This document shows positions 7,674-59,297 of a DNA stretch of 64,000 nt, piece by piece. A model generated the notes under the pieces. That model did no database searches. It was not told the DNA's origin and was given only the letters and a program-made list of their open reading frames with translations. This DNA is from an uncultured bacterium. GTDB lineage: Bacteria > Hydrothermota > UBA3073 > NMUJ01 > CBEVQO01. Numbering within the stretch: position 1 is the first letter of the stretch; each line of letters opens with the position of its first letter. Made by a program: the position numbers and the translations under genes. The DNA is taken from assembly GCA_965552055.1 (NCBI GenBank), contig CBEVQO010000003.1:192001-256000 (forward strand), given 5' to 3'.

Positions 7674-7848
7674 ATTTTTAGCCCCGCCTCCGCTGTCCCC
7701 ACCTTCCCGATTAAGTCAGCCCACTACTTCCCCCGCTATAACGCAATCAGAAGATAAAGCGTAAAACACCAGAGTAACCCACATCCCCATAATGGGCTGA
7801 CATATCAACCCACAGGTATTATGCTCGGCTACGCCTCGCATTAAAAAT
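7674..7848 (-). repeat. structured intergenic element, copy 1 (ncRNA or non-autonomous mobile element)
   Basis: 7680-7725 matches 59131-59176 at 45/46 nt and 7775-7812 matches 59225-59262 at 36/38 nt; internal inverted repeat GTCAGCCCA/TGGGCTGAC. Strand inferred from G-U-compatible pairing. Confidence 0.8.
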
Positions 7849-7905
7849 TTTTAGGTCACAGACCTGACACTGATATGGCTTCTTACCCTCTTATGAAATA
7901 ATTTA

Positions 7906-7932
7906 TTGACAGAGGAAAATGCTGATTATAAT
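7906..7932 (+). promoter_or_regulatory. promoter TTGACA-N15-TATAAT
   Basis: Perfect consensus boxes, followed by SD AGGAGG and ATG 7950. Confidence 0.7.
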
Positions 7933-7949
7933 ATGCAAAAGGAGGGGGT

Positions 7950-10900
7950 ATGAGGCGTGTTGCTTTATTATTTTTTATTTTAACAGGGACAGCTTTCGCA
8001 AAGATATGGGTTGTAGATACCACAGGTGCAGAAGGTGAGAAATTACAAGCTGCTATTGATTCAGCATGGGCAAACCCGGGCATTGATACAGTGCTCCTAA
8101 AAGATGGAACTTATCATCTTGGAGGAGTAAATGGAGATACTGGTTTGATAATGCGTGATTCTGTTGTGCTTATGAGTGAAAATGGAGCTCAAAAATGCAC
8201 GCTAACTGCTGCATCAGAAGATGGCACAGATACTGCATGGCATGTCATCTATTGCAGTGGATGGGATACCGCATCGCATGCAGCACTAATAAGGGGCTTC
8301 ACCATAAAAGATGGCGCTGCATGGGGTGCTTCTCCTCATGATCGCGGTGGTGGAATCTACATCGACTCTGCATCACCTACAATAGATTCGTGCATAATCA
8401 CAAACAATTTTGCTTGGGCTAGCGGTGCAGGAATTTACATTCTTGACCATTCTTCACCCATATTATCAGGCAACACAATCACAGACAATATTGGCGGCGT
8501 TGGCGGCGGAATTTACATTCATGTCTATTCTTCACCCACATTGAAAGGCAACACAATCACAAACAATTCTGCTGCTTTGGATGGTGGAGGTATCCACATT
8601 ACTGACTATTCTTCACCCATATTAATAGGTAACACAATTACAAACAATTCTGCTGCTAATGGTGGCGGAATTTACATTCATGACCATTCTTCACCCACAT
8701 TGGAAGGCAACACAATCACAAACAATTCTGCTGATGATGATGGTGGCGGAATTTACATTGCTTACTCTTGTTCACCCACATTATCAGGCAACACAATTAC
8801 AGACAATTCTGCTAATGATGAAGGTGGTGGAATTTCCATTCGTTCTTTTTGTTCACCCACATTATCAAGCAACACAATCATAAACAATTCTGCTAATTAT
8901 GGTGGCGGAATTTTCATTTGGTACTATTCTTCACCTACATTGGAATGCAACACAATCACAAACAATTCTGCTAATTGGGGTGGTGGAATTTACATTTATG
9001 ACCATTCTTCGCCTACATTATCCGGCAACACAATCACAAATAATTATGCTAATTATGGTGGCGGAATTTGTATTTATAAATATTGCTCTGCAAAGCTAAC
9101 AAAATGTGTAATCTGTATGAACAAAAGCAAATCAGGCGGTGTAATATATGATACTCTTAATTCAAGAATTATAATTGATAGCTCATTCATCGCGGACAAT
9201 GAAGGGCTCGCTTATATTGCATCGGATGCAGATTCAGGGGTGACATTCAGGCTTACACAGAGTCACATTTACTATAACACTTTTCAACTGGATACAGAAA
9301 TCAACAACCTATCGAGTGTGACGATAAATCTTGAGAATAATTTCTGGTGGGATAAAACATTTAGCGAAATATCTGCAAAAATAAAAGGTAACGCTGATTT
9401 TTATCCATGGCTGGATGATTTTATTTTAGAAGGTGTACCAGCTGAGCCTGTGGGCGTTTATTCTTTAAAGAATTATGACAGAGATTTTCTTACAATTATT
9501 GACTCAGTTGGCGAAGGAGATACACTTTATATAAAACTTACTGGATATGACAGGAATCCTGATTTGCGCGAACTCGCAATAGTAATTTTGAAATCAAGCG
9601 TTTATCCACAGGGAATAGCGGTTGGACTCATTGAAACAGATACAAATTCTGGAGTTTATGAAGGCAAAGCTTATGTTCTGGAAAGCACAGGTAATGATAC
9701 TATAAGAACTGACGATATAAATCAAATAATACGGGTTGATCCGATAGGTGATGAGATAATACTTCAAAGCAATATTGATACCACAAAGAAGTTCTTTGTT
9801 AAGTACAAAGGAGGACTTCAACCTGATATTGTGCTTTCGGATACTGTCCATGATTTTGGCTCATGTTCACCCTACGACACGATTGACTGGCAAATGTGGG
9901 TAAAGAATGCAGGTAATACAAATCTTGTAATTGATAGCGTTAGATTAGAGGCACCTTTTGCGATAGTTTCACCAACTTTGCCAGAAACAATATCACTCAG
10001 TGATAGTTCAGAATTCACAATAAGGTTTAATCCACAAGATATAGGTGATTTCTTCGATACAATGGAAATTTACTCGAATGACCCTGATGAGCCTGTTGCA
10101 AAAATATATCTTTCTGGAAAAGTACTCGCATCCAATATTATACTTTCGGATACAATACATGATTTTGGTATATGTTCACCTTATGACACAATAGATTGGA
10201 AAGTGTGGGTAAAAAATACGGGTAACGAAACTCTATCGGTTGACAGTGTCAAAGTAAATCTGCCTTTTAAATTAATTTCGCCTTCATTGTCCCAAATCAT
10301 ATTGCCAAGTGATAGCACAGAGTTTACAATAAGATTTAATCCACAGGATACGGGCAGTTTCTTTGATACTATGAAAATTTACTCGGATGACCCTAATAAA
10401 CCCGTTGCGAAAATATATCTTTCAGGAAGAGCAGTTATACCCAATATTGTTCTCTCGGATACTTTGCACGATTTTGATTCATGTTTCCTTTATGGCACAA
10501 TATATTGGAAAATGAAAGTATGGAATAAAGGTAACATAGACCTCATAATTGATAGTGTAAAGGTAAATTCGCCTTTCTTTGTAACTTCACCTTCATTCCC
10601 CCAGACCATACAGCCTGATGGTAGTTTAGAGCTCACAATCTGCTTCAATCCTCAGGATACGGGCAATTTTGTTGACACCATGAAAATTTACTCAAATGAC
10701 CCGGATGAACCTGTTGCAAAAGTGGTATTAATCGCATCATGCGTGGGATTGCAGGAGATGTTGCCAAAGACATTCAAAGTAAACAATACGCCAAATCCAT
10801 TCAGCAACTTCACAAAAATAAAATATCAATTGCCAGAAGAAGAAAAAGTAAGAATTGAAATAATAGATATAACAGGAAGATTGATAAAAGTATTGGTTGA

Positions 10901-11042
10901 TGAAAAGAAATCACCGGGATTTCATTCTGTAACATGGAAAGGTGAAGACGCCAGAGGCAAAAATGTTCCACCTGGAATCTACTTCTATCTCATAAAAGCA
11001 GGCAAAAATAGAGCGATTAAGAAAATGATAAAATTGAAATAA
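7950..11042 (+). CDS. secreted parallel beta-helix repeat protein with three ASH/choice-of-anchor-D-like Ig domains and C-terminal FlgD-Ig/T9SS-CTD-like domain
   Basis: Signal peptide MRRVALLFFILTGTAFA; GGGIYI..SSPTL.GNTITNNSA repeats; three HDFG...SNDPDEP repeats; PNPFSNFTKIKYQL...GIYFYLIKAG..KKMIKLK tail. Confidence 0.85.
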   Translation: MRRVALLFFILTGTAFAKIWVVDTTGAEGEKLQAAIDSAWANPGIDTVLLKDGTYHLGGVNGDTGLIMRDSVVLMSENGAQKCTLTAASEDGTDTAWHVIYCSGWDTASHAALIRGFTIKDGAAWGASPHDRGGGIYIDSASPTIDSCIITNNFAWASGAGIYILDHSSPILSGNTITDNIGGVGGGIYIHVYSSPTLKGNTITNNSAALDGGGIHITDYSSPILIGNTITNNSAANGGGIYIHDHSSPTLEGNTITNNSADDDGGGIYIAYSCSPTLSGNTITDNSANDEGGGISIRSFCSPTLSSNTIINNSANYGGGIFIWYYSSPTLECNTITNNSANWGGGIYIYDHSSPTLSGNTITNNYANYGGGICIYKYCSAKLTKCVICMNKSKSGGVIYDTLNSRIIIDSSFIADNEGLAYIASDADSGVTFRLTQSHIYYNTFQLDTEINNLSSVTINLENNFWWDKTFSEISAKIKGNADFYPWLDDFILEGVPAEPVGVYSLKNYDRDFLTIIDSVGEGDTLYIKLTGYDRNPDLRELAIVILKSSVYPQGIAVGLIETDTNSGVYEGKAYVLESTGNDTIRTDDINQIIRVDPIGDEIILQSNIDTTKKFFVKYKGGLQPDIVLSDTVHDFGSCSPYDTIDWQMWVKNAGNTNLVIDSVRLEAPFAIVSPTLPETISLSDSSEFTIRFNPQDIGDFFDTMEIYSNDPDEPVAKIYLSGKVLASNIILSDTIHDFGICSPYDTIDWKVWVKNTGNETLSVDSVKVNLPFKLISPSLSQIILPSDSTEFTIRFNPQDTGSFFDTMKIYSDDPNKPVAKIYLSGRAVIPNIVLSDTLHDFDSCFLYGTIYWKMKVWNKGNIDLIIDSVKVNSPFFVTSPSFPQTIQPDGSLELTICFNPQDTGNFVDTMKIYSNDPDEPVAKVVLIASCVGLQEMLPKTFKVNNTPNPFSNFTKIKYQLPEEEKVRIEIIDITGRLIKVLVDEKKSPGFHSVTWKGEDARGKNVPPGIYFYLIKAGKNRAIKKMIKLK
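8340..9090 (+). repeat. intragenic tandem ~69-72-bp repeats (23-24 aa beta-helix rungs, about 10 units)
   Basis: Recurring TTCACCCACATT..AGGCAACACAATCACAAACAATTCTGCT..GGTGGCGGAATTTACATT; boundaries approximate. Confidence 0.9.
9822..10740 (+). repeat. three ~309-bp intragenic repeats (Ig-like domains)
   Basis: Units begin near 9822, 10131 and 10440 (DIVLSDTVHDFG, NIILSDTIHDFG, NIVLSDTLHDFD). Confidence 0.85.
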
Positions 11043-11051
11043 TTTATTCAC

Positions 11052-11078
11052 TTGACAAACTGAATTTTTGAATATTTT
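11052..11078 (+). promoter_or_regulatory. promoter TTGACA-N15-TATTTT, 7 nt before ATG 11086 (leaderless)
   Basis: Boxes seen; no SD. Confidence 0.55.
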
Positions 11079-11085
11079 TATTGTC

Positions 11086-14000
11086 ATGTATGTCGGGATT
11101 GATGTAGGTTCTGTTAGTGTGAAGACGGTTATACTCGATAAAGACAAAAAGATAGTAAAGGTACTGCCATACACAAGGCATTATGGTGAGCCAGTGAAGA
11201 TTGTTAAAAAACATCTCGAAGAAATTGAAAAAGAATTTCCAGTTGTTGACAGCGTTAGAGTGACTGGGGCAGGAGGAAAGCTTCTTTCACATCTTCTCGG
11301 TGTGCCTTTTGTAAACGAACTACCAGCGCAAACCGAAGCAGCAAGAGAATATTATCCACATGCAAAATGCATAATTGATATTGGGGGAGAGGACTCTAAA
11401 TTTATAGATATCGAAAAAGAAGATTTTGCGATGAACGAGCTGTGTGCTGCAGGAACAGGTGCTTTTCTTGACCAGCAGGCATCACGAATGGGCTATACAA
11501 TTGAGGAATTCGCAGAAGTATCCCTTAAATCCAAAAATCCACCAAGAATAGCAGGAAGATGCACTGTATTTGCCAAAACCGATATGATTCATCTACAGCA
11601 GGAAGCAACGCCTGATTATGACATAATCGCAGGATTGCACTTTGCTCTCGCACGCAACTTCAAATCTGAAATAGCAAAAGGAAGAAAAATAAGACCGCCT
11701 GTGCTTTTCCATGGAGGCGTGGCATTTAATAAAGGGATGGTGCATGCATTCCGTAAGGAACTCGGCTTGAAAGAAGATGAACTTATAGTGCCAGAGTATT
11801 GTGCGTGGATGTGTGCAATTGGAACAGCTATCATCGCAATTAAAGAAGGAGAAAAGAAAGAAATCAAAATAAAAGATTTAATCGAAAGATTGGAAAAGTA
11901 TTTGAGAGATTACAAAGTAGAATGGAAATCCCTGCCAAAATTATCACTTGAGCAATCAAAAATTTTATGGTATCACAGAAAGGAACATAAATTTAAAGAA
12001 GGAGAAAAAGTAGATGCATATATCGGAATAGATGTAGGTTCCACATCCACAAAAGTTGCAGCAATTGATGAAAATGGAAATTTACTTGGTGAAGTTTATC
12101 TATGGACATCCGGAAGACCCATAGAAGCAGTAAGAGAGTGTTTGAGAATTTTAAATGAGAAAATAGGAAAATACATAAATGTAAAAGGAGCAGGCACAAC
12201 AGGTTCTGGAAGATATCTAACGGGCGATATAATAGGGGCTGATGTTGTTGTAAATGAGATAACTGCACAGGCAAGGGCAGCGGTACACATTGACCCTTAT
12301 GTTGACACAATATTTGAGATAGGGGGACAGGATTCGAAATACATCTCTATTGAGAATGGTGTAATCGTTGATTTTGAGATGAACAAAGTTTGTGCTGCTG
12401 GAACCGGCTCTTTCTTACAGGAGCAGGCAGAGCGCTTAAATGTAAAAATTGAAGATTTTGGAGATATTGCTTTGCGGGCAGAAAAACCATGTGACCTCGG
12501 AGAAAGATGCACAGTTTTTATGGAAACAAATTTGACACAATATCAAAGAAAAGGTGTGTCAAAAGAAAACCTGATTGCAGGCTTATGCTATTCCATAGCG
12601 AAAAATTATTTAACGCAGGTAGTAGGTAAAAAGCGAATAGGCAATCGCATACTGTTTCAGGGTGCGGTAGCATTTAATAAGGGAGTAGTAGCTGCTTTTG
12701 AAAAAATCCTTGGCAAACCCATAATAGTGCCAGAAAATCCACATGTAACCGGTGCAATGGGTGCTGCAATGTGTGCAATGGAAAAAGTAAAAGAAAAAGG
12801 AAAAACAAGATTCAGAGGATTTGATAAAATCGTAAATATGAAATATGAACAAAAAACATTCATCTGCAAAGGCTGTCCGAATCACTGTGAGATAAAACAG
12901 GTAAAAATCGAAGGCGAAGATGTACCTCTTTATTATGGTGCGAGATGCGAAAAATATGAATTTAAAAAAGAAAAGAAAAAATTAGGAGAAGATTTACCCG
13001 ACCTTTTTGCAGAAAGAGAAAAATATCTGCTGGAAGCGTATGAAAAAGCACAAGAAGTTGAAGGTCCAAAAGTTGGCATTCCCTATGCCTCTCTTTTCCA
13101 CGAATATTTGCCTTTCTGGGCGACATTTCTGGCAGAACTTGGCTTTAAGCCTGTACTTTCTGATAGAACAAATAAAAAGATAATGCACCAGGGGGCTGCT
13201 TCTGCAAACGCAGAATTTTGCTTCCCAATTAAACTTGTAATAGGGCATGTAATAAATCTTCTTGAGAAAAATGTAGATTTTCTATTTTTGCCGAGTATAA
13301 TTGATACACATCCACCAAAAGGAGCAAAAAGAAGTTATATCTGTCCATACAATCAGGAGATACCTCATATAATAATGGCAGCTCTAAGACCAAAAGTAAA
13401 AATTTTAAATCCAGTAGTGTATTTCAGGAATCAAAAAGCACTTTTTAGAAGTTTAGTGGAATTTGGAAGAGAAATCGGAAAAGATGAAGCACTTATAAAA
13501 CGGGCGATTAGAAAAGCACAAAAAGCACAGGAGGAATTCTGGAGAAAGATAAAAGAAAGAGGAAGGGAAATTTTAAGCACATTAAAAGGAAATGCACTTG
13601 TAATCGTTGGAAGGTCTTACAATACCTGTGACCGCATGGCAAATCTTGATATACCCAAGATTTTAAGGGAAAGAGGTCAAATGGTAATTCCGATGGATTT
13701 CTTACCCGTTGAAGAAATAGATGTTTCGGACTGGCCCAATATGTACTGGACTTATGGCAGGAAAATTCTTGCAGCTGCCCGCCTTATAAGAGATGATGAA
13801 AGATTATTTGCAGTTTACTTAACAAATTTTGGATGTGGACCTGATTCATTTATACATCAATATGTTAGAAAAGAACTCGGTGGTAAACCTTTCTTACAGA
13901 TAGAGATAGATGAACATTCAGCGCCTGCTGGTGTTATCACACGATGCGAGGCTTTTCTTGATTCCATAAAGAATGCAAAGAAAAAAGGTGAAATTTATAT

Positions 14001-15219
14001 AAAATCTGCACCGAAATATAAAAAATATGAAGGCAGGACGATATATTTGCCGCACATGGGAGATTGTGCGTATGCACTTTGGGCTGCTTTCAGAAAACAT
14101 GGAATACCAGCAGAGATAATAAAATCAGATGACAGGACACTTGAACTCGGCAGGAAATACACATCGGGTAAAGAGTGTTATCCATGTGTTATCACAACAG
14201 GCGATATGCTTAAAACTCTGGAAGAAAATGACCCCAAAAAATGTGCATTCTTCATGTCAACTGCGTATGGACCCTGTCGCTTCGGACAATACTGTCATTT
14301 GCAAAGAATGATTCTTGATGAACTTGGATATAAAGATGTGCCGATTGTATCACCGGGTGCCCCTGAATCACTCGATTTTTATCGCGAGTATGATATGGCA
14401 AATCCAGAAGGTGTTATGACACTTGTAAGAGCATTGCAGGGAGTTGTGGCAATTGATTACCTTTTGAAATTAAGAAGAGAAAAAAGACCCTATGAAGCGA
14501 ATAAAGGTGAAACAGATAGAGTTTATCAAAAATGGTTGATGAAAATCTGTGAGGCAATACAGAAAGGAGGGGTAGGCAAAACACTAAAGCAGGCAGTAGA
14601 AGATTTTAAGAAAATAAAAGTAAAAGATGTAGAAAAGCCAAGAATTGCGATAGTTGGGGAGATTTTTGTTCGCTCACATGAATACAGCAATAACAACATT
14701 GAGAGGAAAGTTGAAGAGATGGGTGGAGAAACCTGTTTTCCGCCTTTTTATGAATGGGGCTTACATACAGCAAATACACGCAGGTTGGATGCAAAAGTTG
14801 ATGGAAATCCATTTCAGGCATTTTTATCTCACTGGACAGAGTTTGCATTAAAATATTTTGAAAAGTCACTCGGTAAATATGTCTGGCATGCTTTAAAATA
14901 TCCAGAAGAAGTTGATATCGAAGAGATATGGGATGCTGCTTCTGATTATTTGATAAGATGGTGGGGCGAACCTGCGTTATCTGTAGGTGATGCTGTAATA
15001 TGGGCACGCAAAGGTGAAATTGATGGTATAATAAACCTTATGCCATTCACATGTATGCCGGGAAATACAACAGCATCGGTATTTAAGAGAGTAAAAGACG
15101 ATTTTAACATCCCTGTACTGGATATTGCATTTGATGGGCTGGAACAGGGCACCCTTGAGCAGCGCCTCGAAGCCTTTATGTATCAGGTAAAGCGCCACAA
15201 AGAGAAGAAATTGAAATAA
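11086..15219 (+). CDS. CoA-substrate-specific enzyme activase (two BcrAD/BadFG ATPase domains plus DUF2229-like domains)
   Basis: Two GIDVGS / IGGxDSK / CAAGTG[AS]FL modules, CKGCPNHC, FCFPIK, FGCGPDS, MPFTCMPG; likely start MYVGIDVG. Confidence 0.9.
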   Translation: MYVGIDVGSVSVKTVILDKDKKIVKVLPYTRHYGEPVKIVKKHLEEIEKEFPVVDSVRVTGAGGKLLSHLLGVPFVNELPAQTEAAREYYPHAKCIIDIGGEDSKFIDIEKEDFAMNELCAAGTGAFLDQQASRMGYTIEEFAEVSLKSKNPPRIAGRCTVFAKTDMIHLQQEATPDYDIIAGLHFALARNFKSEIAKGRKIRPPVLFHGGVAFNKGMVHAFRKELGLKEDELIVPEYCAWMCAIGTAIIAIKEGEKKEIKIKDLIERLEKYLRDYKVEWKSLPKLSLEQSKILWYHRKEHKFKEGEKVDAYIGIDVGSTSTKVAAIDENGNLLGEVYLWTSGRPIEAVRECLRILNEKIGKYINVKGAGTTGSGRYLTGDIIGADVVVNEITAQARAAVHIDPYVDTIFEIGGQDSKYISIENGVIVDFEMNKVCAAGTGSFLQEQAERLNVKIEDFGDIALRAEKPCDLGERCTVFMETNLTQYQRKGVSKENLIAGLCYSIAKNYLTQVVGKKRIGNRILFQGAVAFNKGVVAAFEKILGKPIIVPENPHVTGAMGAAMCAMEKVKEKGKTRFRGFDKIVNMKYEQKTFICKGCPNHCEIKQVKIEGEDVPLYYGARCEKYEFKKEKKKLGEDLPDLFAEREKYLLEAYEKAQEVEGPKVGIPYASLFHEYLPFWATFLAELGFKPVLSDRTNKKIMHQGAASANAEFCFPIKLVIGHVINLLEKNVDFLFLPSIIDTHPPKGAKRSYICPYNQEIPHIIMAALRPKVKILNPVVYFRNQKALFRSLVEFGREIGKDEALIKRAIRKAQKAQEEFWRKIKERGREILSTLKGNALVIVGRSYNTCDRMANLDIPKILRERGQMVIPMDFLPVEEIDVSDWPNMYWTYGRKILAAARLIRDDERLFAVYLTNFGCGPDSFIHQYVRKELGGKPFLQIEIDEHSAPAGVITRCEAFLDSIKNAKKKGEIYIKSAPKYKKYEGRTIYLPHMGDCAYALWAAFRKHGIPAEIIKSDDRTLELGRKYTSGKECYPCVITTGDMLKTLEENDPKKCAFFMSTAYGPCRFGQYCHLQRMILDELGYKDVPIVSPGAPESLDFYREYDMANPEGVMTLVRALQGVVAIDYLLKLRREKRPYEANKGETDRVYQKWLMKICEAIQKGGVGKTLKQAVEDFKKIKVKDVEKPRIAIVGEIFVRSHEYSNNNIERKVEEMGGETCFPPFYEWGLHTANTRRLDAKVDGNPFQAFLSHWTEFALKYFEKSLGKYVWHALKYPEEVDIEEIWDAASDYLIRWWGEPALSVGDAVIWARKGEIDGIINLMPFTCMPGNTTASVFKRVKDDFNIPVLDIAFDGLEQGTLEQRLEAFMYQVKRHKEKKLK

Positions 15220-15275
15220 AATTTAATTTTTAAAATATTCTTGACTTTTTTCCATTTTGAAGATAATATAATGAT

Positions 15276-15560
15276 ATGGAAGAGAAAGTTCCACAACCCG
15301 ATTTTTATAGCCTGGTTAACTTTTTTGCATTAATTGCACTTCAACATCTTGGACTTGTCAAAAATCCCATAACAGATAAAGTTGAGAAAAATCTTGAACT
15401 TGCTAAATACACAATCGATACACTTGATTTGATAAAAGAAAAGACAAAAGGTAATCTTACCGAAGATGAGGAAAGATTTTTAGATAACATAATTGCAGAC
15501 CTTAAGATGAATTATGTAAGGATAAAGAATGAAGAGAGTGCAAATCCCCCACCTTCTTGA
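15276..15560 (+). CDS. DUF1844 family protein
   Basis: ALQHLG..NP, AKYTIDTL..IKEKTKGNLTEDE; TTGACT at 15241. Confidence 0.85.
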   Translation: MEEKVPQPDFYSLVNFFALIALQHLGLVKNPITDKVEKNLELAKYTIDTLDLIKEKTKGNLTEDEERFLDNIIADLKMNYVRIKNEESANPPPS

Positions 15561-16332
15561 AAAGAAGAAAAAAGGAGAAAAAGCAGTATTATTAACAGCC
15601 TATGATGCTATAACAGCAGAGATAGAGGATAAAGCAGGTATTGATGTTATCCTCGTGGGAGACTCTGTTGGTATGACGGTACTGGGTTATAGGACAACGC
15701 TTCCTGTTACCGTTGATGAGATGCTTATTTTTTGTAAAGCCGTTCGTTCGCGTGTCAAACATGCACTTGTTATCGCTGATATGCCGTTTTTATCTTATCA
15801 GGTATCTGTGGAAGAAGCTATAAGAAATGCTGGTAGATTTTTAAAAGAAGCAGATTGCGATGGTGTAAAAATTGAAGGCGGAGAAGAAATGCTCGATGTT
15901 ATAAAAAATCTTGTGAGAGTAGGGATTCCTGTTATGGGGCATATTGGTATGACACCTCAGTGGATAAAAGCTTTTGGAGGATATAAAGTGCGTGGCAGAA
16001 CAGAAAAAGAGCGTCAGAAACTTTTAAGAGATGCAAAGTTACTTGAAGAAGCAGGTGTTTTTTCAATAATTTTGGAGTGCGTTTTACCTGACATAGCAAA
16101 AGAAATTTCAGAAAGTTTGGAAATTCCAGTTTATGGAATAGGTTCGGGTCCTTATTGCGATGGTCAAATACTTGTGGTTACGGATATACTTGGGCTTTTT
16201 AAAGAATTTGTCCCCAAATATGTGAAACAATACGAGAATCTCTACGATAAAATTTTTGCTGCTGTGAAAAGATATATCGAAGATGTAAAAACAGGGCGTT
16301 ATCCTTCAAAAGAGCATTGTTATGATAAATGA
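15529..16332 (+). CDS. panB: 3-methyl-2-oxobutanoate hydroxymethyltransferase
   Basis: LTAYD, LVGDSVGM, ADMPF, VKIEGG, GHIGMTPQ, GIGSG..CDGQILV. Confidence 0.96.
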   Translation: MKRVQIPHLLEKKKKGEKAVLLTAYDAITAEIEDKAGIDVILVGDSVGMTVLGYRTTLPVTVDEMLIFCKAVRSRVKHALVIADMPFLSYQVSVEEAIRNAGRFLKEADCDGVKIEGGEEMLDVIKNLVRVGIPVMGHIGMTPQWIKAFGGYKVRGRTEKERQKLLRDAKLLEEAGVFSIILECVLPDIAKEISESLEIPVYGIGSGPYCDGQILVVTDILGLFKEFVPKYVKQYENLYDKIFAAVKRYIEDVKTGRYPSKEHCYDK

Positions 16333-17227
16333 AATCGATATAATCAGGGATTTAAAAAATATTTTTCCAAAGATTGGCAACGATGCGGCAGATTTTAAAT
16401 TGTCAGGTGATAAAATTCCGATTGCATGTATTGATAGTTATTATGAAGGTGTTCATTTTGAATTTTCTTATTGTCCGCGCGATGTCGTGGGCTACAGGAG
16501 TGTAGCTGCCACTTTGAGCGACATAGCAGCTGTTGGAGGTGTTCCCCGATATATTGCGGTAAGTGTGGGTTTAAGTTCACCCAGGTTTTACAAAGAGATA
16601 ATTGAAGGGATAAAAGAAGCATGCGATAAATTTGGAGTAGAAGTAATTGGTGGTGATACAATTGAGTCACCTCATACTTTTCTAACTATTTGTGCCATTG
16701 GTGAAGCAGAGCGTGTGGTACCACGACAGGGTGCAGAAGCAGGCGATTTAATATGCGTAACAGGAACAATAGGTGATGCTGCTATTAATTTTTCTTATCT
16801 TAAATCTGGTTTTAAACTCGGGAACAAAAATAACAAATTTTTTTATCCTGAACCAAGAATTAAAGAAGGGCAAAAATTGTCCCCCTATGTAACTTCTATG
16901 ATAGATATTTCTGACGGTCTTATAATCGACCTCTGGCGATTACTTTATGAAGGTAAGTTAGGTGCGCAAATTGATATAAAAAATATTCCGATAAAAGAAG
17001 AAAGCATAAAATTATGTGAAGAAATGGGCAGAGATTATTTGAATTTTCAATTGTATGGAGGTGAAGATTATGAATTACTTTTTACGATTAAAGAAGAAAA
17101 TTTACCCAAAATTCGGGATGTAGATTTTAGAGTCATAGGCAGAGTTATTGATAAGAAAGGATTTTTTACAAAGAAATGGCAAAAGATTCATGTAAGGGGA
17201 TATGTTCATTTTAAAAGTGTCAGGTAA
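16322..17227 (+). CDS. thiL: thiamine-monophosphate kinase
   Basis: IGNDAA, EGVHF, LSDIAAVG, IGGDT, IDISDGL, GGEDYELLFT. Confidence 0.92.
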   Translation: MINEIDIIRDLKNIFPKIGNDAADFKLSGDKIPIACIDSYYEGVHFEFSYCPRDVVGYRSVAATLSDIAAVGGVPRYIAVSVGLSSPRFYKEIIEGIKEACDKFGVEVIGGDTIESPHTFLTICAIGEAERVVPRQGAEAGDLICVTGTIGDAAINFSYLKSGFKLGNKNNKFFYPEPRIKEGQKLSPYVTSMIDISDGLIIDLWRLLYEGKLGAQIDIKNIPIKEESIKLCEEMGRDYLNFQLYGGEDYELLFTIKEENLPKIRDVDFRVIGRVIDKKGFFTKKWQKIHVRGYVHFKSVR

Positions 17228-18788: not shown

Positions 18789-18789
18789 T

Positions 18790-49827: not shown

Positions 49828-49831
49828 AAGC

Positions 49832-49858
49832 TTGACAGATTGAATATTTGATTATTTT
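49832..49858 (+). promoter_or_regulatory. promoter TTGACA-N15-TATTTT
   Basis: Boxes in the intergenic gap. Confidence 0.5.
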
Positions 49859-49876
49859 TAAATACAAGGGGGTGTT

Positions 49877-50440: not shown

Positions 50441-50875
50441 ATGCGGGTAGTAATACAAAGAGTAAAAGAGGCATACTGTAAGGCTGAAAATTTTTATTCC
50501 AGAATAGGCAAAGGAATATTAATTTTTCTTGGTATAACAAAAGATGATACGGAAAAAGACATAGAATTCCTTGTAAAAAAATGTGCAAATTTAAGGATTT
50601 TCGAAGATGAACAGGGTAAGATGAATTTGTCTGTAAAAGATGTAGGGGGCGAAGTTCTTATTGTATCTCAATTTACACTTTATGGAGATTGTAAAAAGGG
50701 ATTAAGACCTTCATTTGATAAAGCGGCAAAAAGAGAGATAGCAGAACCTCTTTATAACAAGTTTATTGAAGCGATGAGAAAAGAGTTGCCTGTGAAGACA
50801 GGAGTTTTTGGAGCGAAAATGGAAATAGGTCTTGTGAATGACGGACCCGTTACATTTATAATAGATTCGAAATGA
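50441..50875 (+). CDS. dtd: D-aminoacyl-tRNA deacylase
   Basis: [26 protein letters not shown]. Confidence 0.96.
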
Positions 50876-51615
50876 TACAAAGTATGACAGGATACGGAGA
50901 AGCACGGGAAAGTGGTATCAGTTGTGAAATTAAATCACTAAATCATAAGGGTTTTGTCACAAATTTTATAATGCCAGAGTATTTGCAGTCTCTTGAAGTT
51001 GAATTAAGAAATCTTTTGCATTCTCGCTTAAAAAGAGGAGCAATTTCCTATAGATTAATTGTAGAGGTGTCGCCAAAGTTTGAAATCGACTGGCATAGTG
51101 CAGAAGAACTGATAAAATTAATTTTTAAACTTGAAAAAACTTTTGGATTGGCAGGGAGGCTACCACCAAATTTCTTTTATCAAAATGTGATAAGGACAAA
51201 ATATGAATTTAACGAAGAGATAAAGAAAAAAATTATAGAACTCACAGAAAAAGCAATCGAAAAATTGATAGAAATGAGAAAAAGGGAAGGTCAAAGGATA
51301 GAGAAAGAACTGGAGAAAGAGCTAAAAAAACTCGAAGGATATTTAAAAGAGATAGAAGAGAAAGGAGGTGAATTGCGTAACAAAATTGACTTTTCTGAGG
51401 AATGCAGTAGACTGCGGTTTCATATCTCGGGCTTCAGAGAGCTTATGAAGCGTGAAGAGCCGTGCGGACATGCTCTAAATTTCCTTTTGCAGGAGATGCT
51501 AAGGGAAGCCAATACGATAGCGGCAAAAGGACAGGATGCAGAAATTTCCAAAAATATAGTGATGATAAAAGAAAAAATAATGCAGTTAAAAGAACATGTT
51601 GAAAATGTCCTATAA
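50872..51615 (+). CDS. YicC/YloC family protein (shortened)
   Basis: [32 protein letters not shown]. Confidence 0.88.
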
Positions 51616-52189
51616 ACCTTTTGCAGTGATAATAACAGGACCCTCTGGTAGCGGTAAGACAACCATTTGCAGGAAGTTGCTTGAAAAATGTAATGACCTG
51701 GAATATTCTGTGTCTGTTACAACGAGGAAAAGACGCCCGCAGGAACAAAATGGCAAAGATTATATTTTTGTCGATGAAAATACATTTAAAAAATGGGTGG
51801 AAGAGGGTAAATTTTTGGAATGGCAACCCGTTTATGGCGATTATTATGGCACTTTGAGGGAAACAGTGGAGAAAATTCTCCGGAAGGGCAAAAATGTTTT
51901 GATGGATCTTGATTTGAAGGGAACAAAAAATGTAAAAAGGATGCGTCCGGATAGTGTAACGATTTTTATAATGCCGCCATCAATTGAAGAATTGAAAAAC
52001 AGGCTAAAAAAGAGAGGGGACGAAAAGGAAGTTATTGAAAAAAGATTAAAGGAAAGTGAAAAAGAAATAAAACAATTTAAGGATTTTGATTATGTTGTTT
52101 TGAATGAAGAAATAGAAGAAACAGTAGAAAATATCTTAAAGATTATAGAAGCAGAGAAGTTAAAATCGGTGAGGTATGATGAAGGATAA
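51605..52189 (+). CDS. gmk: guanylate kinase
   Basis: GPSGSGKTT, SVSVTTR, GKDYIF, YYGT, PPSIEEL. Confidence 0.95.
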   Translation: MSYKPFAVIITGPSGSGKTTICRKLLEKCNDLEYSVSVTTRKRRPQEQNGKDYIFVDENTFKKWVEEGKFLEWQPVYGDYYGTLRETVEKILRKGKNVLMDLDLKGTKNVKRMRPDSVTIFIMPPSIEELKNRLKKRGDEKEVIEKRLKESEKEIKQFKDFDYVVLNEEIEETVENILKIIEAEKLKSVRYDEG

Positions 52190-52412
52190 AGAAAAAATGG
52201 AAAAAATAAAAAAAGATGTGTTAAAACAGATGAAAGAAGAGGCAGTAATTCCGATCGAACTGATATGGGAGAAGATGGACAATAAATACAGGGCAATTTT
52301 AAGAATCTCATCAGAAGCCGAGAGATTAAGGGAAATAGACCCTTCGTCCGATAAGAAACCCATCCTCGATGCGATTGAAAAATTCATAAAAGGCGAAGAA
52401 AAAGAAGAGTGA
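52176..52412 (+). CDS. rpoZ: putative RNA polymerase omega subunit (divergent)
   Basis: gmk-X-coaBC synteny; NKY....A.RL...KP...A pattern. Confidence 0.55.
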   Translation: MMKDKEKMEKIKKDVLKQMKEEAVIPIELIWEKMDNKYRAILRISSEAERLREIDPSSDKKPILDAIEKFIKGEEKEE

Positions 52413-53548
52413 AGATAATACTCGGGGTAACAGGAGGTATTGCAGCGTATAAAGCAATAGAAGTATTACGAATTCTTACAAAAAGGGGACACAGGGTAAT
52501 TTGCTGTCTCACCATGACAGCACAAAGATTAATCGGCGTTGAAACTTTTAAAACATTAAGCAAAAATAAAGTGATTACAGATTTATTCTCGGATGACGGA
52601 ATACCTGAGCATATAAAGCATCAGGATGCGGATGTTGTAGCAATTGTTCCTGCCACTTACAACATTATCGGGAAAGTAGCAGCAGGAATAGCTGATGACC
52701 CTCTGACAACGATTATATCTGCTGCAAAAGGCAAAGTGATATTTTTCCCCGCGATGAATACAGTAATGTGGGAAAATAAAATCTTGCAACAAAATATCGA
52801 AAAATTGAGGAAACTCGGATATTATGTGATAGAGCCAGAAGAAGGTGAACTTGCAGAAGGTAAGGGCAAAGGCAGATTACCATCGCCCGATAAAATAGCA
52901 GAAGAAATCGAAAGAATAGGTGAAGGGAAACTTAAAGGCAAAAAAATTCTGGTAACAGCAGGTGCCACAGAAGAATATATCGACCCGGTTAGATGTATAA
53001 CAAACAGGTCATCGGGTAAAATGGGGATTAAAATAGCAGAAGAAGTAAAAAAAGAAGGAGCAGATGTATTGTTGATTTGCGGAAGAACAGAAATACAGCC
53101 ACCTTCTCATATCCCACAGATGAAGATAAGGGAAACAAAAGAGATGAAAGAAGAAATATTAAAAAATCTGGAAGATAAAAATATCGTGATAATGACAGCA
53201 GCAATTTGCGACTTTAAACCCGTTAAAAAAGAAGAAAAGAAAATAAAGAGAAAAGACAGGTTAACCCTTGAATTTGAAAAAACAGAAGACATTACGATAG
53301 AAATAAGGAGAAAGAAAAAAGATGTAAAAATCGTGGGATTTGCACTTGAGAGCGAAAATTTAATAGAAAATGCAAAAAAGAAATTGAAAGAAAAAGAACT
53401 CGATATTATTGTGGCAAATTCAATAGAAACTATGGGAAGCGATTTTATAAGACCTGTAATTATAAAAGGCGATGAGATAAAAGAATATGATAGGATGAGA
53501 AAAGAAGAATTTGCAAAGGAATTGATAAAATGGTTGACATTACTCTAA
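52409..53548 (+). CDS. coaBC: phosphopantothenoylcysteine decarboxylase/synthetase
   Basis: GVTGGIAAYK, PAMN, TAGATEEYIDPVR.ITNRSSGKMG, VGFALE. Confidence 0.95.
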   Translation: MKIILGVTGGIAAYKAIEVLRILTKRGHRVICCLTMTAQRLIGVETFKTLSKNKVITDLFSDDGIPEHIKHQDADVVAIVPATYNIIGKVAAGIADDPLTTIISAAKGKVIFFPAMNTVMWENKILQQNIEKLRKLGYYVIEPEEGELAEGKGKGRLPSPDKIAEEIERIGEGKLKGKKILVTAGATEEYIDPVRCITNRSSGKMGIKIAEEVKKEGADVLLICGRTEIQPPSHIPQMKIRETKEMKEEILKNLEDKNIVIMTAAICDFKPVKKEEKKIKRKDRLTLEFEKTEDITIEIRRKKKDVKIVGFALESENLIENAKKKLKEKELDIIVANSIETMGSDFIRPVIIKGDEIKEYDRMRKEEFAKELIKWLTLL

Positions 53549-54201
53549 ATGAATTAAAAAAATTAATGATGCAGGAGAAATTGATTCACAAAAAAATACT
53601 GGTAGAAAAAGAAAAAAGAAATAAAGTTGCTTCGGATAAGTCAAAGAGGTTAAAAGAGCTTTACGAAAAGATAAAAGATTGTAAAAAATGCAGATTGTGG
53701 GAGAATCGTATAAATCTTGTTTTTGGAGATGGCTCACCGGACAGTGGTATTGTTTTCATCGGGGAAGCGCCGGGTAAAAGTGAAAACAGAGAAGGTAGAC
53801 CATTTGTGGGAGATGCAGGAAGATATCTGAATAAACTACTTGAAGAGATAAATTTGAAAAGGGAAGACATATACATTACGAATGTTGTGAAATGCTGGCC
53901 TCCGGGAGATAGAGACCCTTTGCCCGATGAAATAGAAAAATGCAGACCCTATCTTGAAGAGCAACTGAAAATTATTGAGCCCAAAATAATAGTTTGCCTC
54001 GGTAGATTCGCCGGATGGCAGATGCTTGGTATGAAACTGCCGATGATGAAAATGAGAGGAAGATTACACAATAAAGGAAACTATAAAGTGCTCGTAACTT
54101 TTCATCCAGCAGCAATTTTATATCACAGAAACTGGGAACCTTACATAAAGGAAGATTTCAGAATTTTAAAAAAGTTTATTGAAGATGAGAAATTGTTATG
54201 A
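53530..54201 (+). CDS. family 4 uracil-DNA glycosylase
   Basis: CKKC, GEAPG..E..GRPFVG, NVVKCWPP, TFHPA. Confidence 0.92.
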   Translation: MVDITLNELKKLMMQEKLIHKKILVEKEKRNKVASDKSKRLKELYEKIKDCKKCRLWENRINLVFGDGSPDSGIVFIGEAPGKSENREGRPFVGDAGRYLNKLLEEINLKREDIYITNVVKCWPPGDRDPLPDEIEKCRPYLEEQLKIIEPKIIVCLGRFAGWQMLGMKLPMMKMRGRLHNKGNYKVLVTFHPAAILYHRNWEPYIKEDFRILKKFIEDEKLL

Positions 54202-55574
54202 TAGAGAAGGGGCATTTATACGACCTTGATGCAGAAAGGGCATTGCTTGCATGTCTTATGCTAAATAAAGATGCGATAAGCAGAGCGATTGAAATTGTAA
54301 AGCCAGGTGATTTTTATGATGACCGTCACAGGATAATTTATAATACAATTTTAAGGGTGTATGAAAGAGGAGAACCTGCTGACCCTGTTGTGCTGAAAAA
54401 CGAATTAGAAAAAGAAGGGGTTCTTGAAAAAATAGGCGGATTAAGTTATCTATCCGAAGTTTATGACACGCCTACAGCTGTTCCTGCAAATGTCGAGCAA
54501 TATGCTGAGATTATAAGAGAAAGAGCAATGCTGAGGGAATTGTTAAGCGCTTCGGAAAAGATATCAAGGATGTGTGCCGAAAGACCGGGAGAGATAGATG
54601 ATATACTCGATCAGGCAGAAAAACTTATCTTCAGGATTAAACAGGAAAGGTTAAAAGGTACGATTCTATCGATTAGAGATATTTTGATGGAAAAATACAA
54701 AGAGATAACGGCTCTTGAAGAAGAGGAGCCTGTTTCTTCTGAGTTGATGACACAATTTCGTTCGCTCGATGAATTACTGGGAGGATTATATGCTTCTAAT
54801 TTCATAATAGTAGCAGGGAGACCGAGTGCAGGCAAATCTGCTTTTGTTATGAATCTCGCAGAAAATATAGCAGAGAGCAGAAAAGTACCGGTGCTGATAT
54901 TTAGTCTCGAGATGTCAGCAGAAGAGGTATGTCTGAGAATGTGGGGTAGCAGGGCAAGGGTTTCTCCTCATAGAATAAGGACAAAAAAATTGAGCCAGCA
55001 GGAAATGGTTAGATTAACGCAGGCAGCAAGTGAATTATCCGAACTGCCGATTTATATCGATGAAACACCAAAACTACCTCTCCTTGAATTAAAAGCAAAA
55101 GCAAGAAGAATGAAATCACAAAGAAATATCGGCTTGATAATAGTTGACTACCTGCAGTTGATAGAAGCACCAAAAGCTGAGACAAGGCAGCTCGAGGTAG
55201 CACTTGTATCCCGTGAATTAAAAAGCCTGGCAAGGGAGTTAGAAATACCTGTTATCGCGGTATCACAGCTATCAAGGGCAGCAGAACAAAGAGGTGACCC
55301 CAGACCAAGATTGTCGGATTTAAGGGAATCAGGGGCTCTCGAACAGGATGCAGATGTCGTCCTCTTTATCTATAAGCATCCAAAAGCACCGGAAAAAAAG
55401 GAGAAAGAAACAGATGTGATAATTACAACGGTAGAAGTGGCAAAACACAGGACAGGACCAACAGGTAAAATAAATCTCGCTTTTTTAAAGAGCTTCGTAA
55501 AATTCCAGAATTTAGCACCCGAAGAAGAAGCAGAATACGGAGAACAGGAAGCAGTGGAGGAAGGAGAGGAATGA
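54198..55574 (+). CDS. dnaB: replicative DNA helicase
   Basis: GRPSAGKS, FSLEMS, VDYLQL, SQLSR, LSDLRESGALEQDAD. Confidence 0.96.
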   Translation: MIEKGHLYDLDAERALLACLMLNKDAISRAIEIVKPGDFYDDRHRIIYNTILRVYERGEPADPVVLKNELEKEGVLEKIGGLSYLSEVYDTPTAVPANVEQYAEIIRERAMLRELLSASEKISRMCAERPGEIDDILDQAEKLIFRIKQERLKGTILSIRDILMEKYKEITALEEEEPVSSELMTQFRSLDELLGGLYASNFIIVAGRPSAGKSAFVMNLAENIAESRKVPVLIFSLEMSAEEVCLRMWGSRARVSPHRIRTKKLSQQEMVRLTQAASELSELPIYIDETPKLPLLELKAKARRMKSQRNIGLIIVDYLQLIEAPKAETRQLEVALVSRELKSLARELEIPVIAVSQLSRAAEQRGDPRPRLSDLRESGALEQDADVVLFIYKHPKAPEKKEKETDVIITTVEVAKHRTGPTGKINLAFLKSFVKFQNLAPEEEAEYGEQEAVEEGEE

Positions 55575-56332
55575 GTATCATTTATAAAATAATGATAAAC
55601 ATATTTGCAGTGGTAGGAGGTGTATGGCATATCCTCTGGGGCACTTTGAAGCGTCTACCACAAACATGGCGCTCAAGAAGATTAATAGTAGATCAAATAA
55701 GGCATCTGGGACTGGGTTCAATTCCCATAATTGCTCCGACTTTCTTTTTCGCAGGAGCTGTAGTGGCATATGAGGCAAAATTTTATGGCGGAGGTATGTT
55801 TCCAGAAATCTATATAGGGATGTTTACAGCAAAAGCTCTTATGATTGAAATTGCACCACTTTTAACCGGGATAATGTTCGCAGGAAGAGCAGGCTCATCA
55901 ATGGCTGCAGAAATAGCAACAATGAGAGTAACAGAACAAATAGATGCACTCGAAACATTAGCAATAGACCCTTTGAGATTTATTTCGTTACCACGATTCG
56001 TATCCTCAATAATTGTTGTCCCGTTATTAACATTAATAGCAAACTTCGTTGGATTCATAGGAGGATTATTCTGTGCAAAGGTATTTTTCAATGTAACTGC
56101 GATAACCTACATTGAAGGCTTGAGATTGAATTTCATCCCAAGGGAATTCTGGGGCGGACTTGTCAAATCTACCTTCTTCGGCATGTGGACGGCGGTTATG
56201 AGCGTTTATTACGGGTTTACTGCTACAGGAGGAGCCGAGGGCGTTGGAAGGGCATCTACCCGTGCTGTAATTTCTTCATCAATTTTAATAATAGTTTTCG
56301 ATTTAGTTGTAGCAATGACAATATTCAGATGA
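55571..56332 (+). CDS. mlaE: MlaE-family ABC permease
   Basis: EIAPLLTG, GRAGSSMAAEIATMRVTEQIDAL, GAEGVGRASTRAV. Confidence 0.92.
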   Translation: MSIIYKIMINIFAVVGGVWHILWGTLKRLPQTWRSRRLIVDQIRHLGLGSIPIIAPTFFFAGAVVAYEAKFYGGGMFPEIYIGMFTAKALMIEIAPLLTGIMFAGRAGSSMAAEIATMRVTEQIDALETLAIDPLRFISLPRFVSSIIVVPLLTLIANFVGFIGGLFCAKVFFNVTAITYIEGLRLNFIPREFWGGLVKSTFFGMWTAVMSVYYGFTATGGAEGVGRASTRAVISSSILIIVFDLVVAMTIFR

Positions 56333-57060
56333 TAGAAGTTAGAAATTTGTGGAAAGCATTTGGTGATAATCAGGTACTAAAAGGTTTAAATTTAAAAGTA
56401 AACAAAGGAGAAACAGTTGTGATAATAGGAAGGTCAGGATGTGGTAAAAGTGTGCTTCTAAAACATATTGTGGGGTTGCTGAAGCCCGATAAAGGCAGTG
56501 TTTTTATAGATGGCGAAGATATAACAAAAGTATCCTATAAAAGGTTGTATGAAATAAGGAAGAAAATTGCTGTTGTTTTTCAGTGGTCTGCCCTGCTCGA
56601 TTCCCTTACAGTAGCCGAAAATGTGGGATTGTGGCTAATGGAACATACCAATTTGCCAAGGGAAAAGATTATGGAAATAGTAAGGGAAAAATTGTCAATG
56701 GTAGAACTCGAAGGTGTAGAAAACAAACTACCTGCAGAACTATCAGGAGGAATGAAAAAGAGAGTAGCAATAGCAAGGGCTCTCGCTCTCGAACCCGAAT
56801 ACATACTCTATGATGAGCCAACAACTGCTCTCGACCCCATAACAGCAAGAAGAATAGATAAATTGATAAGAGAACTTCAACAAAGATTAAAAATAACATC
56901 AATCGCAGTGACGCATGATTTAATAAGCGCTTCAATAATAGGAGACAGAATAGCATTGTTAAAAGATGGCAAAATAGTATATGAAGGAACCCCCGAAGAA
57001 ATAAGGAGAACAAATAACAAAGATGTTGTTGAATTTGTAAAAGGAGGAGGTTATGTCTAA
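56329..57060 (+). CDS. mlaF: MlaF-family ABC ATPase
   Basis: ATG 56329 overlaps the mlaE stop (ATGA); GRSGCGKS, LSGGMKKR, YDEPT. Confidence 0.92.
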   Translation: MIEVRNLWKAFGDNQVLKGLNLKVNKGETVVIIGRSGCGKSVLLKHIVGLLKPDKGSVFIDGEDITKVSYKRLYEIRKKIAVVFQWSALLDSLTVAENVGLWLMEHTNLPREKIMEIVREKLSMVELEGVENKLPAELSGGMKKRVAIARALALEPEYILYDEPTTALDPITARRIDKLIRELQQRLKITSIAVTHDLISASIIGDRIALLKDGKIVYEGTPEEIRRTNNKDVVEFVKGGGYV

Positions 57061-57844
57061 AGAAGCAAAAGTAGGCTTGTTTGTAACAATAACAATAATA
57101 TGCGGAGTTGCATGGTATATATGGGCTGCAAGAGTACAGTTCGAAAGAAGGAATAAAAGAATAGAGTTAATTTTCCCTGATGTCGCAGGATTGAGAGTAG
57201 GAGACCCGGTGATGATACTCGGAATAAGAATAGGAAAAGTGCATAAATTAATTCCCATGCAGGAATCGGTAAAGGTGGTTGCATATATAAAAAAAGATAT
57301 AAATATTTACACGGATGCAAGTGCAAGGATTAAAGACCTCGCAGTACTTGGCGGTGCAAAATATATCGCACTGAAACCAGGTAAAAGCGGAATACCACTC
57401 CCAGAAGGCAAAAGAATAAGAGGCGAACCAGATATACTTCCCGTATCAACTTATGCAGAAGTTGGAGACAGAATAAATAAAATCCTGGATAGAATAACTA
57501 CACAGGAGATGGTAAAGACAACAACAAAAACAATGGAAAATATCGGAGAAGCAGCAAAAGAATTAACCCTTTTACTGAAAGACCTCAGAAAATCCGTGGA
57601 AAATACCCTGAAAGAAACAAATACTTCTTTGAAAGAGATAAGAGAAGTAGCAAATAAAATGAAAAGAATAGCAGAAAGAGCAGATACGATAATGCTTGCA
57701 CTGAAAAATAATAAAAGCACAATCGGAAATTTGATTTACGATGATAAGATTTATAATGATTTGAAAGAAGCGATAAATTCAGTTAAAGAACTCGCAAAAG
57801 ATATAAAGGAACATCCAGGTAGATATATAAAAGTTAGATTTTAA
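57053..57844 (+). CDS. mlaD: MlaD/MCE domain protein
   Basis: EAKVGLF, GLRVGDPV..GIRIGKV, long helical C-terminus. Confidence 0.88.
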   Translation: MSKEAKVGLFVTITIICGVAWYIWAARVQFERRNKRIELIFPDVAGLRVGDPVMILGIRIGKVHKLIPMQESVKVVAYIKKDINIYTDASARIKDLAVLGGAKYIALKPGKSGIPLPEGKRIRGEPDILPVSTYAEVGDRINKILDRITTQEMVKTTTKTMENIGEAAKELTLLLKDLRKSVENTLKETNTSLKEIREVANKMKRIAERADTIMLALKNNKSTIGNLIYDDKIYNDLKEAINSVKELAKDIKEHPGRYIKVRF

Positions 57845-59121
57845 TGGCATATATTTGTAAAAATTGCGGATATAAAAGTACAAAATGGCTGGGTAGATGC
57901 CCAAATTGCGGCGAATGGAATACTTTTGAAGAAGAGAAAAAAGGTATAAAAAAAGAATATAAAAAAACATCTTCATCTTTAAAAGAAGTTAAGAAAATAG
58001 AGAGGGAAAGGATAAAAACAGGAATTGACGAATTTGACAGAGTAGTTGGTGGAGGACTTGTTTCAGGAAGCTTTATACTTCTTGGAGGTATTCCTGGTAT
58101 AGGCAAATCAACACTTCTCTTGCAGATTGCACAAAAGCTTGCACAAAAAGACAAAAAAGTTTTGTATATATCGGGTGAGGAATCACCGGAACAAATAAAA
58201 ATGCGTGCGGATAGAATCGATGTAAATGACGAAAATATTTTGATAACAAAAGAAACTTCAATGGACGATTTAATAGAAGAAGTAAAATTTGTAAAACCTG
58301 ATTTTCTAATTTGTGATTCAATTCAAACTTTAAAGGTTGAAGATATGGAGTCGCCTCCTGGTAGTGTAGCACAGGTGCGTGAGTGCGGTGCAAAGCTCCT
58401 TGATATTGCAAAAAGTTTGGGAATTACAGTGTTCGCAATCGGACATGTTACAAAAGAAGGAATAATTGCAGGACCAAAAACACTGGAACATATGGTAGAT
58501 ACGGTTTTATATCTTGAAGGTGATAAAAGTCATTTATTCAGGATTTTGCGTGCTGAAAAAAATCGCTTCGGACCAACAAATGAAATAGGATTATTTGAGA
58601 TGACAGATAAAGGTATGATAGAGGTAAAGGATCCTTCACGCTTTTTCCTGCGGGATAAAAAAACAGAACCAGGTGAAGCAATATCATGTACAGTAGAGGG
58701 AACAAGACCTTTACTTATAGAGATACAGGCATTATCAACAGAATGTAAGTTTGGCTATCCACAAAGGATAACATCCGGATACGATTACAACAGGTTTTCA
58801 ATGCTACTGGCAGTGATAGAGAGAAATCTGGAGATATATACAGGTGATAAAAATATATTTTTGAATGTAGTTGGAGGGTTGAAGTTGCGAGAAACTGCGT
58901 GTGACCTTGCAGTTGTTATGGCTATAGTATCTGCTATTTTGAAGAAGAAAATAAAAGAAGAGACGGTATTGATAGGAGAAGTAGGGCTACTTGGTGAGAT
59001 AATAGAGGTGCCGATGCTCGATAAAAGGATAAAAGAAGCACAAAGGCTTGGTTTTAAGCATTTTATAACACCCGAAAACACAAAAACAATAAAAGAAGCA
59101 TTTCAGAAGATGTTTGGATAA
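57844..59121 (+). CDS. radA: DNA repair protein RadA/Sms
   Basis: CKNCG...W.GRCPNC, GIGKST, KNRFG, EGTRP. Confidence 0.96.
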   Translation: MAYICKNCGYKSTKWLGRCPNCGEWNTFEEEKKGIKKEYKKTSSSLKEVKKIERERIKTGIDEFDRVVGGGLVSGSFILLGGIPGIGKSTLLLQIAQKLAQKDKKVLYISGEESPEQIKMRADRIDVNDENILITKETSMDDLIEEVKFVKPDFLICDSIQTLKVEDMESPPGSVAQVRECGAKLLDIAKSLGITVFAIGHVTKEGIIAGPKTLEHMVDTVLYLEGDKSHLFRILRAEKNRFGPTNEIGLFEMTDKGMIEVKDPSRFFLRDKKTEPGEAISCTVEGTRPLLIEIQALSTECKFGYPQRITSGYDYNRFSMLLAVIERNLEIYTGDKNIFLNVVGGLKLRETACDLAVVMAIVSAILKKKIKEETVLIGEVGLLGEIIEVPMLDKRIKEAQRLGFKHFITPENTKTIKEAFQKMFG

Positions 59122-59123
59122 AT

Positions 59124-59297
59124 AATTTTTAGCCCCGCCTCCGCTGTCCCCGCCTTCCCGATTAAGTCAGCCCACTCATACCGCTGAAATATGTAAGCAG
59201 CAGATAAAGCCACAAACCCTGCTATAACCCACATCACCGTAATGGGCTGACATATCAACCCATATGTAATGCACTCGCTTCGCTCGTAATAAAAATT
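59124..59297 (-). repeat. structured intergenic element, copy 2
   Basis: Homologous to 7674-7848; ends AATTTTTA / TAAAAATT are inverted. Confidence 0.8.

Follow-up and report, generated by a model that had tools for sequence, protein, structure and literature searches.

A family of modular intergenic repeats with a fixed end mostly facing housekeeping genes and a hairpin end mostly facing variable genes

The structured element that occurs twice in the window (the whole 64,000-nucleotide stretch of DNA analysed here) belongs to a family of 71 modular repeats whose C-rich fixed end mostly faces housekeeping genes, while the hairpin end mostly faces variable genes. We interpret the family, with about even chances of being right, as a non-autonomous element that would move in trans as single-stranded DNA, cut at (W)TTA and terminating imperfectly at the hairpin, its copies later exchanging parts. 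The two copies and their surroundings are composed as follows:

7674..7848, plus strand: copy 1 of the repeat, type A, core subfamily A1
7674..7680, plus strand: conserved AT-rich left junction motif of copy 1, either target or element tip, with T at -2 and G at 0 (each in 71/71 copies)
7681..7708, minus strand: fixed left end of copy 1, C-rich on the plus and G-tract-rich on the minus strand
7709..7723, plus strand: 5' arm of the central stem of copy 1
7724..7792, plus strand: C/A-rich core of copy 1, subfamily A1 (12 of 24 type-A copies)
7793..7806, plus strand: 3' arm of the central stem of copy 1
7824..7838, minus strand: right-end hairpin of copy 1, reading GGC-GTA-GCC on the minus strand, with GA/GA flanks
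7853..7865, plus strand: secondary hairpin module behind copy 1, start of a right flank common to three other copies
7654..7659, minus strand: -35-like box of aspS, 21 nt from the first G of copy 1
5924..7627, minus strand: aspS, housekeeping neighbour at the fixed end of copy 1
7950..11042, plus strand: multi-copy beta-helix / Ig / FlgD-tail protein at the hairpin end of copy 1
59124..59297, plus strand: copy 2 of the repeat, type A, core subfamily A2
59132..59159, minus strand: left end of copy 2 (the fixed one), lying 11 nt past the stop codon of radA
59160..59256, plus strand: central stem and A2 core of copy 2
59274..59286, minus strand: right-end hairpin of copy 2, reading GC-GAA-GC on the minus strand, with GA/GA flanks
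59302..59307, plus strand: outward-facing -35 box of the gene to the right of copy 2
57844..59121, plus strand: radA, housekeeping neighbour at the fixed end of copy 2
59302..59826, plus strand: member of an unnamed multi-copy protein family at the hairpin end of copy 2

Both copies lie where the initial annotation had placed them, and its account of their conserved parts holds. The first block (7680-7725 against 59131-59176) is identical at 45 of 46 positions and the second (7775-7812 against 59225-59262) at 36 of 38, with a middle of 48-49 nt between them; the arms GTCAGCCCA and TGGGCTGAC pair, and G-U pairs lengthen the stem on the minus strand. Equally borne out are the GC-richness (49% and 47% against a background of 36%) and the placement between core and accessory genes, with aspS and radA on one side and, on the other, the beta-helix/FlgD-tail protein and a protein without any Pfam match (59302-59826). 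The right flank opened by the 7853..7865 module is the promoter region of paralogous beta-helix genes, and the 5' region of the gene at 59302..59826 is likewise shared with the right flank of another copy. The family of the latter gene is large, with kin at G000:C2:372982-375135, C3:257104-258646 and C10:1-1435, and its members often stand in tandem and at contig ends.

The repeat had been described as a two-copy element, which is right as to the repeat and wrong as to the number, as the host genome (2.23 Mb, 97% complete, draft) holds 24 copies of the same type and 71 of the family. A fuzzy search of the whole genome for the left end gave these 71 matches, with a right end at most 700 nt away in 69. 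The abundance of a 22-nt left-end motif, counted with up to three substitutions, is far above chance (46 occurrences, none for the reversed control). Family members are non-coding, lie between genes or at gene ends and measure about 65-470 bp. The parts common to all are ~28 nt of C-rich sequence at the left end and a small hairpin at the right end. Nothing lies between the ends in the shortest copies (about 65-80 bp), and a short hairpin does in those of 104-107 bp. Type A, which includes both window copies, has a stem around a core of 68-73 nt (24 copies of 162-170 bp), and a second stem type carries C-skewed cores of 94-376 nt. In 19 long cores, checked for a coding remnant, the longest stop-free run is 31-108 codons. 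The copies are mosaics, since every combination of core with left-end and right-end variant occurs.

The family was not detected in 40 genomes of relatives searched by BLAST, in 271 other genomes of the phylum searched with a left-end pattern (two mismatches, best suited to types B and C) or in 21 members of the class searched with a sequence-only model, all of these genomes coming from outside the host's own taxonomic family. Two exact patterns had no match in a wider set of genome contigs, and a single viral match was dismissed as chance similarity at a gene end. Long matching pieces are present in run X1, a hydrothermal-vent metagenome. A literature search for WOR-3 integron repeats, narrower in scope than a full check of whether the family has been published, found no paper.

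The two ends of the repeat differ in predicted structure. The left end is prone to G-quadruplex formation in 71/71 copies (predicted with our own G4Hunter-type score, at least 1.57), and folding predicts a 28-nt unpaired tract at this fixed end. At the right end, a search that did not constrain the loop gave 73 terminal hairpins, all of them on the G-rich strand, flanked by GA/GA and closed by C-G; the loops are G-N-A in 43 and G-NN-A in 30, and the stems (GC, GGC or GGGC, two to four pairs) have changed jointly on both sides. In DNA, a C-G closing pair gives d(GNA) loops unusual stability (PMC3201870). Judged by these letters, the right-end hairpins are of DNA type. The d(cGNNAg) motif reportedly figures in the title of a published study, and loops such as GATA and GTTA do not fit the GNRA pattern of RNA. 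The G-rich strand is the more stable one in 69/71 copies as DNA and in 71/71 as RNA, an advantage that G-rich composition alone favours.

These features bear on the suggestion of a multicopy structured RNA, or of a guide or bridge RNA with a programmable loop, to which we attach next to no weight. The minus strand does fold better as RNA than the plus strand in all 71 copies, but G-U pairs give any G-rich strand this advantage. No variation is seen in the type-A stem, and the central stems of different types differ in letters while still pairing, but 0 of 29 predicted pairs covary among 16 type-A copies and Rfam gave nothing at the gathering score in the window and nothing at E<=1 in four loci. 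Whole elements fold modestly better than shuffled sequences (minus strand z -1.9 and -2.3, plus strand z -1.9 and -0.6). Eleven copies have no recognisable central stem, 43 of the 73 loops are triloops, and the flanking -35 boxes mostly face outward; the case for a structured ncRNA is accordingly weak.

The guide or bridge variant of this proposal relied on a freely variable core, which the larger family does not bear out. The type-A cores form two subfamilies of 12 copies each, with identities of 0.85 and 0.83 within and 0.67 between them, and the middle had looked variable because the window copies are one A1 and one A2. Two distant copies have identical cores, and cores are common to unrelated loci and thus not target-specific. 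Nor do the cores match their own surroundings in excess, as the longest match of a core averages 7.25 nt in its own flanks and likewise 7.25 nt in those of other copies (24 copies). The only IS110 of the genome (G000:C6:126424-127452), considered as the partner of a bridge RNA, was rejected because its ends are dissimilar to the repeat. The idea of an RNA guide falls away, and the core/accessory polarity stays of interest. As a separate observation, this IS110-family transposase looks intact and lies between two outward -35 boxes; end-only derivatives occur at C1:171684, C1:340557, C1:358245-358480 and C5:37460, and one end fragment lies directly behind a repeat copy.

The polarity starts at the left junction, whose consensus is AATTWTTA followed by the invariant G. 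Thirty left genes read into the element; the TAG of the junction is the stop codon in 12 of them, and 23 end within 11 nt. Another 39 read away, 34 of which have a -35-like box within 60 nt; 17 of these boxes lie at 9-10 nt and 9 at 20-22 nt from the first G, in distance bins that were picked after seeing the data. The distance from the right end to the next -35 box is loose (0-53 nt).

The repeats might act in cis as borders of transcription units, by way of a C-rich Rho-loading tract behind stops or of an in-phase A-tract with a G-quadruplex upstream of promoters. Rho is present in the genome, the cores are C-skewed (0.25-0.59), and both the closeness of stops and the spacing of boxes (26 of 33 left distances fall into the two post hoc bins) are in line with such a role. 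The A-tracts of 112 element-free promoters, on the other hand, show weak peaks at similar positions, so that the element may do no more than exploit an A-tract already in place, and the phasing may reflect the target. A border function would cover position and retention, but not the origin of the copies, the polarity of cargo or the DNA-type loops, and we hold it to be decidedly improbable as an explanation of the family.

The neighbours and flanks extend the polarity beyond the junction. A match in NCBIfam (E<=1e-35, first 360 residues at most) was obtained for 41 of the 68 neighbours on the left and for 18 of the 68 on the right, with 30 against 7 discordant pairs (p=2e-4). This comparison is one of left with right neighbours only and omits three copies, one located at the end of a contig and two that have no right end; a few spurious right-hand ORFs (over rRNA, tRNA or an opposite gene) slightly inflate the count of right neighbours without a match. 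Among 69 copies, no two left 300-nt flanks are similar; one pair has about 50 nt of left flank in common, which this test missed. The right 300-nt flanks form 26 similar pairs involving 22/69 copies, of which about 14 represent gene or promoter cargo and the rest extra repeat modules. Strict hairpin matches outside the elements all lie on the right side and on the same strand (7/7). With respect to replication, 43 of 69 copies are oriented one way against the residual GC skew of the draft genome (p=0.11).

Further repetitive DNA was noted in the genome. AT-rich arrays of TTAAAAATTTTAA-like units, spaced ~21 nt apart by eye, stand behind the right end of four copies (G000:C6:5930-6050, C9:28192-28290, C2:79530-79632 and C3:106190-106287) and are possibly bent DNA. 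Paralogous lipoprotein-like genes carry tandem repeats ~156 nt long (L044:1647-2682; G000:C1:10010-11100, C8:35440-36529 and C2:190666-191752). High-copy repeat arrays free of ORFs, at G000:C1:337732-340390, C1:379270-383286 and C6:20503-25045, are probably CRISPR arrays.

A comparison with other strains shows where the family varies. Searching two JGI metagenomes with the exact pattern gave 21 loci, mostly 94-100% identical to the present genome, 20 of which are sites occupied here too; the remaining copy lies inside a 1.2-kb segment missing from the present genome. Among the shared loci, L029 has a core of the other subfamily in the second strain, L028 has different DNA behind the right end, and L037 lacks the right part. 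At L031 another right-end variant accompanies 1.5 kb of extra cargo, which joins up again at a short stretch of AT-rich similarity ahead of a -35 box. The orthologue of window copy 1 (L041) shows four changes in ~107 nt, three of them at family-dimorphic positions. These differences are unpolarised, gain and loss not being assigned. As no clean empty site was found among the 21 strain loci, nor among 15 of 89 joints listed, no case of present-day mobility was seen; in one contig of run X2 the match stops at the start of aspS.

Such a pattern could likewise stem from an old, immobile repeat that serves as a homology anchor, with which incoming DNA pairs by RecA before joining by microhomology further on, all without a dedicated enzyme. 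The occupation of 20/21 loci in both strains and the mosaic copies are compatible with this, as are the L031 cargo, which brings its own right-end variant, the dimorphic changes at L041 and the failure to find a mobilising enzyme. Plain homologous exchange should, however, add cargo on both sides, whereas flank sharing is almost all on the right, and it leaves the origin of 71 copies with unique left flanks unexplained. We therefore consider an immobile anchor rather unlikely.

The initial annotation had also offered a non-autonomous element mobilised in trans, and it is this part of its reading that we retain as the best explanation: copy number, unique left flanks, the fixed junction and the modular build speak for it, and the failure to find an enzyme or an empty site speaks against it. 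In the 97%-complete genome no match was obtained for Y1 transposase/RAYT/TnpA-REP (PF01797, control positive in 6/14), TnpB (PF07282), reverse transcriptase (PF00078), or DDE transposases of the IS4/5 (PF01609) and IS630 (PF13358) types. The IS91 profiles PF04986 and PF14319, used to look for a Y2 HUH transposase, gave no match either, but their controls were equally silent. GIY-YIG gave one match, in a 581-aa frame.

We infer each enzymatic step of the mechanism that follows. A trans-acting enzyme, probably of HUH type, would move the element as single-stranded DNA and cut each end behind a (W)TTA motif, leaving the target unduplicated; for an HUH-type insertion the predicted bare empty allele is AATTTTTA-AAAATT, again without duplication. 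The process would start at the fixed end, and a leaky stop at the hairpin would allow downstream genes to be carried along, as in one-ended transposition of IS91. Insertions would survive only at stop codons or upstream of -35 boxes, and later RecA-type exchange between copies may have mixed ends and cores.

Integron parts behind some copies point to yet another source. An integron-integrase-like gene lies behind one copy (TIGR02249, 223.6 bits against a cut-off of 265), together with an attI-like site and attC-bearing cassettes, and the cassette array ends in a partial right-end motif. All integrase 5' ends (4/4) and attI-like motifs (3/3) follow copies, 32-1280 nt behind a right end, and the attC sites of the local integron contain small hairpins similar to those of the repeat. 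It is conceivable, if improbable, that the family is integron-derived or integron-inserted, with the integrase placing a folded single strand into AT-rich secondary sites and cassettes being added behind. The paired core-site motif of attC is RYYYAAC/GTTRRRY. From the alignments, no RYYYAAC...GTTRRRY pair is present at the ends of the repeat, which do not pair into one long stem, and BLAST with three local attC sites matched no element. Moreover, only about 5 of 71 copies are accompanied by integron parts, and the integrase has an internal gap against its profile and may therefore be inactive. At the integron-like locus itself (L046:8376-16000; G000:C9:28375-35970) the attI-like site lies downstream of the integrase gene, and the cassettes, which encode a methyltransferase, a NucS-like protein and unnamed genes, run in the same direction.

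Mosaic intergenic repeats as such are already known and ordinary; the unusual part is the core/accessory polarity. One end is positioned to an accuracy of one or two bases, either at stop codons or at helical-turn spacings from housekeeping -35 boxes, and the other is the point at which accessory DNA comes in and varies from strain to strain. More speculatively, and with a rather low probability in our estimation, the ~70 copies could form a dispersed gene-capture system of polar DNA landing pads, at whose hairpin end a so far unrecognised single-strand recombinase would add and exchange accessory genes. If so, the family would be a scattered counterpart of an integron, its pads fixed at the borders of housekeeping transcription units and its cargo consisting of restriction systems, integron pieces and surface proteins. 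Should a trans-acting enzyme be responsible, it would combine insertion at safe sites with a route of gene capture in a genome without a recognised transposase, and the family would offer a test case for repeats that shape accessory genomes.

Among known systems, IS91 is described as having an ori end that adjoins the target and a palindromic ter end where the cut falls at CTCG, and as capturing DNA in a one-ended manner (PMC13181058). The repeat agrees with this description in that one end lies beside a fixed short motif, the other is a palindrome closed by CTCG, and cargo DNA lies beyond the palindrome; it differs in its junction, which is (W)TTA and not the CTTG/GTTC given there (PMC13181058). 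CTCG closes the hairpin of the repeat and cargo and extra hairpins lie beyond, yet conserved bases follow CTCG. A further difference from IS91 concerns the strand: the hairpin forms on the minus strand, but the one displaced by an IS91-like run, starting at the fixed end and heading for the cargo, would be the plus strand.

With BIMEs and REPs of enterobacteria and REPINs of Pseudomonas, as portrayed in PMC3333891 and PMC3116915, the family shares its species-level, extragenic, multicopy and mosaic character, as well as mismatch-bearing palindromes, a variable linker between conserved arms and a presumed movement as single-stranded DNA. In contrast to REP/BIME elements as characterised in PMC3333891, the repeat has no GTAG at the 5' foot of the palindrome, the foot being AT-rich. 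Its outer ends, unlike those of a REPIN, are unrelated and not inverted, and only the central stem is an inverted repeat. A further difference from BIME/REP is that the genome has no RAYT/TnpA-REP match and that the repeat is strongly tied, on one side, to accessory genes.

In types B and C a short central hairpin is followed by TGAC, an arrangement that we take to resemble the right ends of IS200/IS605 elements. Unlike the non-autonomous derivatives of that group (PATEs), which have subterminal hairpins at both ends and rely on TnpA in trans, the repeat has no hairpin near the fixed end, no TnpA/TnpB match and no clear lagging-strand bias. Its strand-asymmetric stem with a skewed variable loop, which often abuts a stop codon and precedes accessory genes, resembles the attC sites of integrons, from which it differs in having neither a core-site pair nor cassette arrays and in being dispersed beside housekeeping genes. 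The repeat works like a BIME or a mini-IS91 but departs from each in defining properties, as it does from attC and from bridge RNA.
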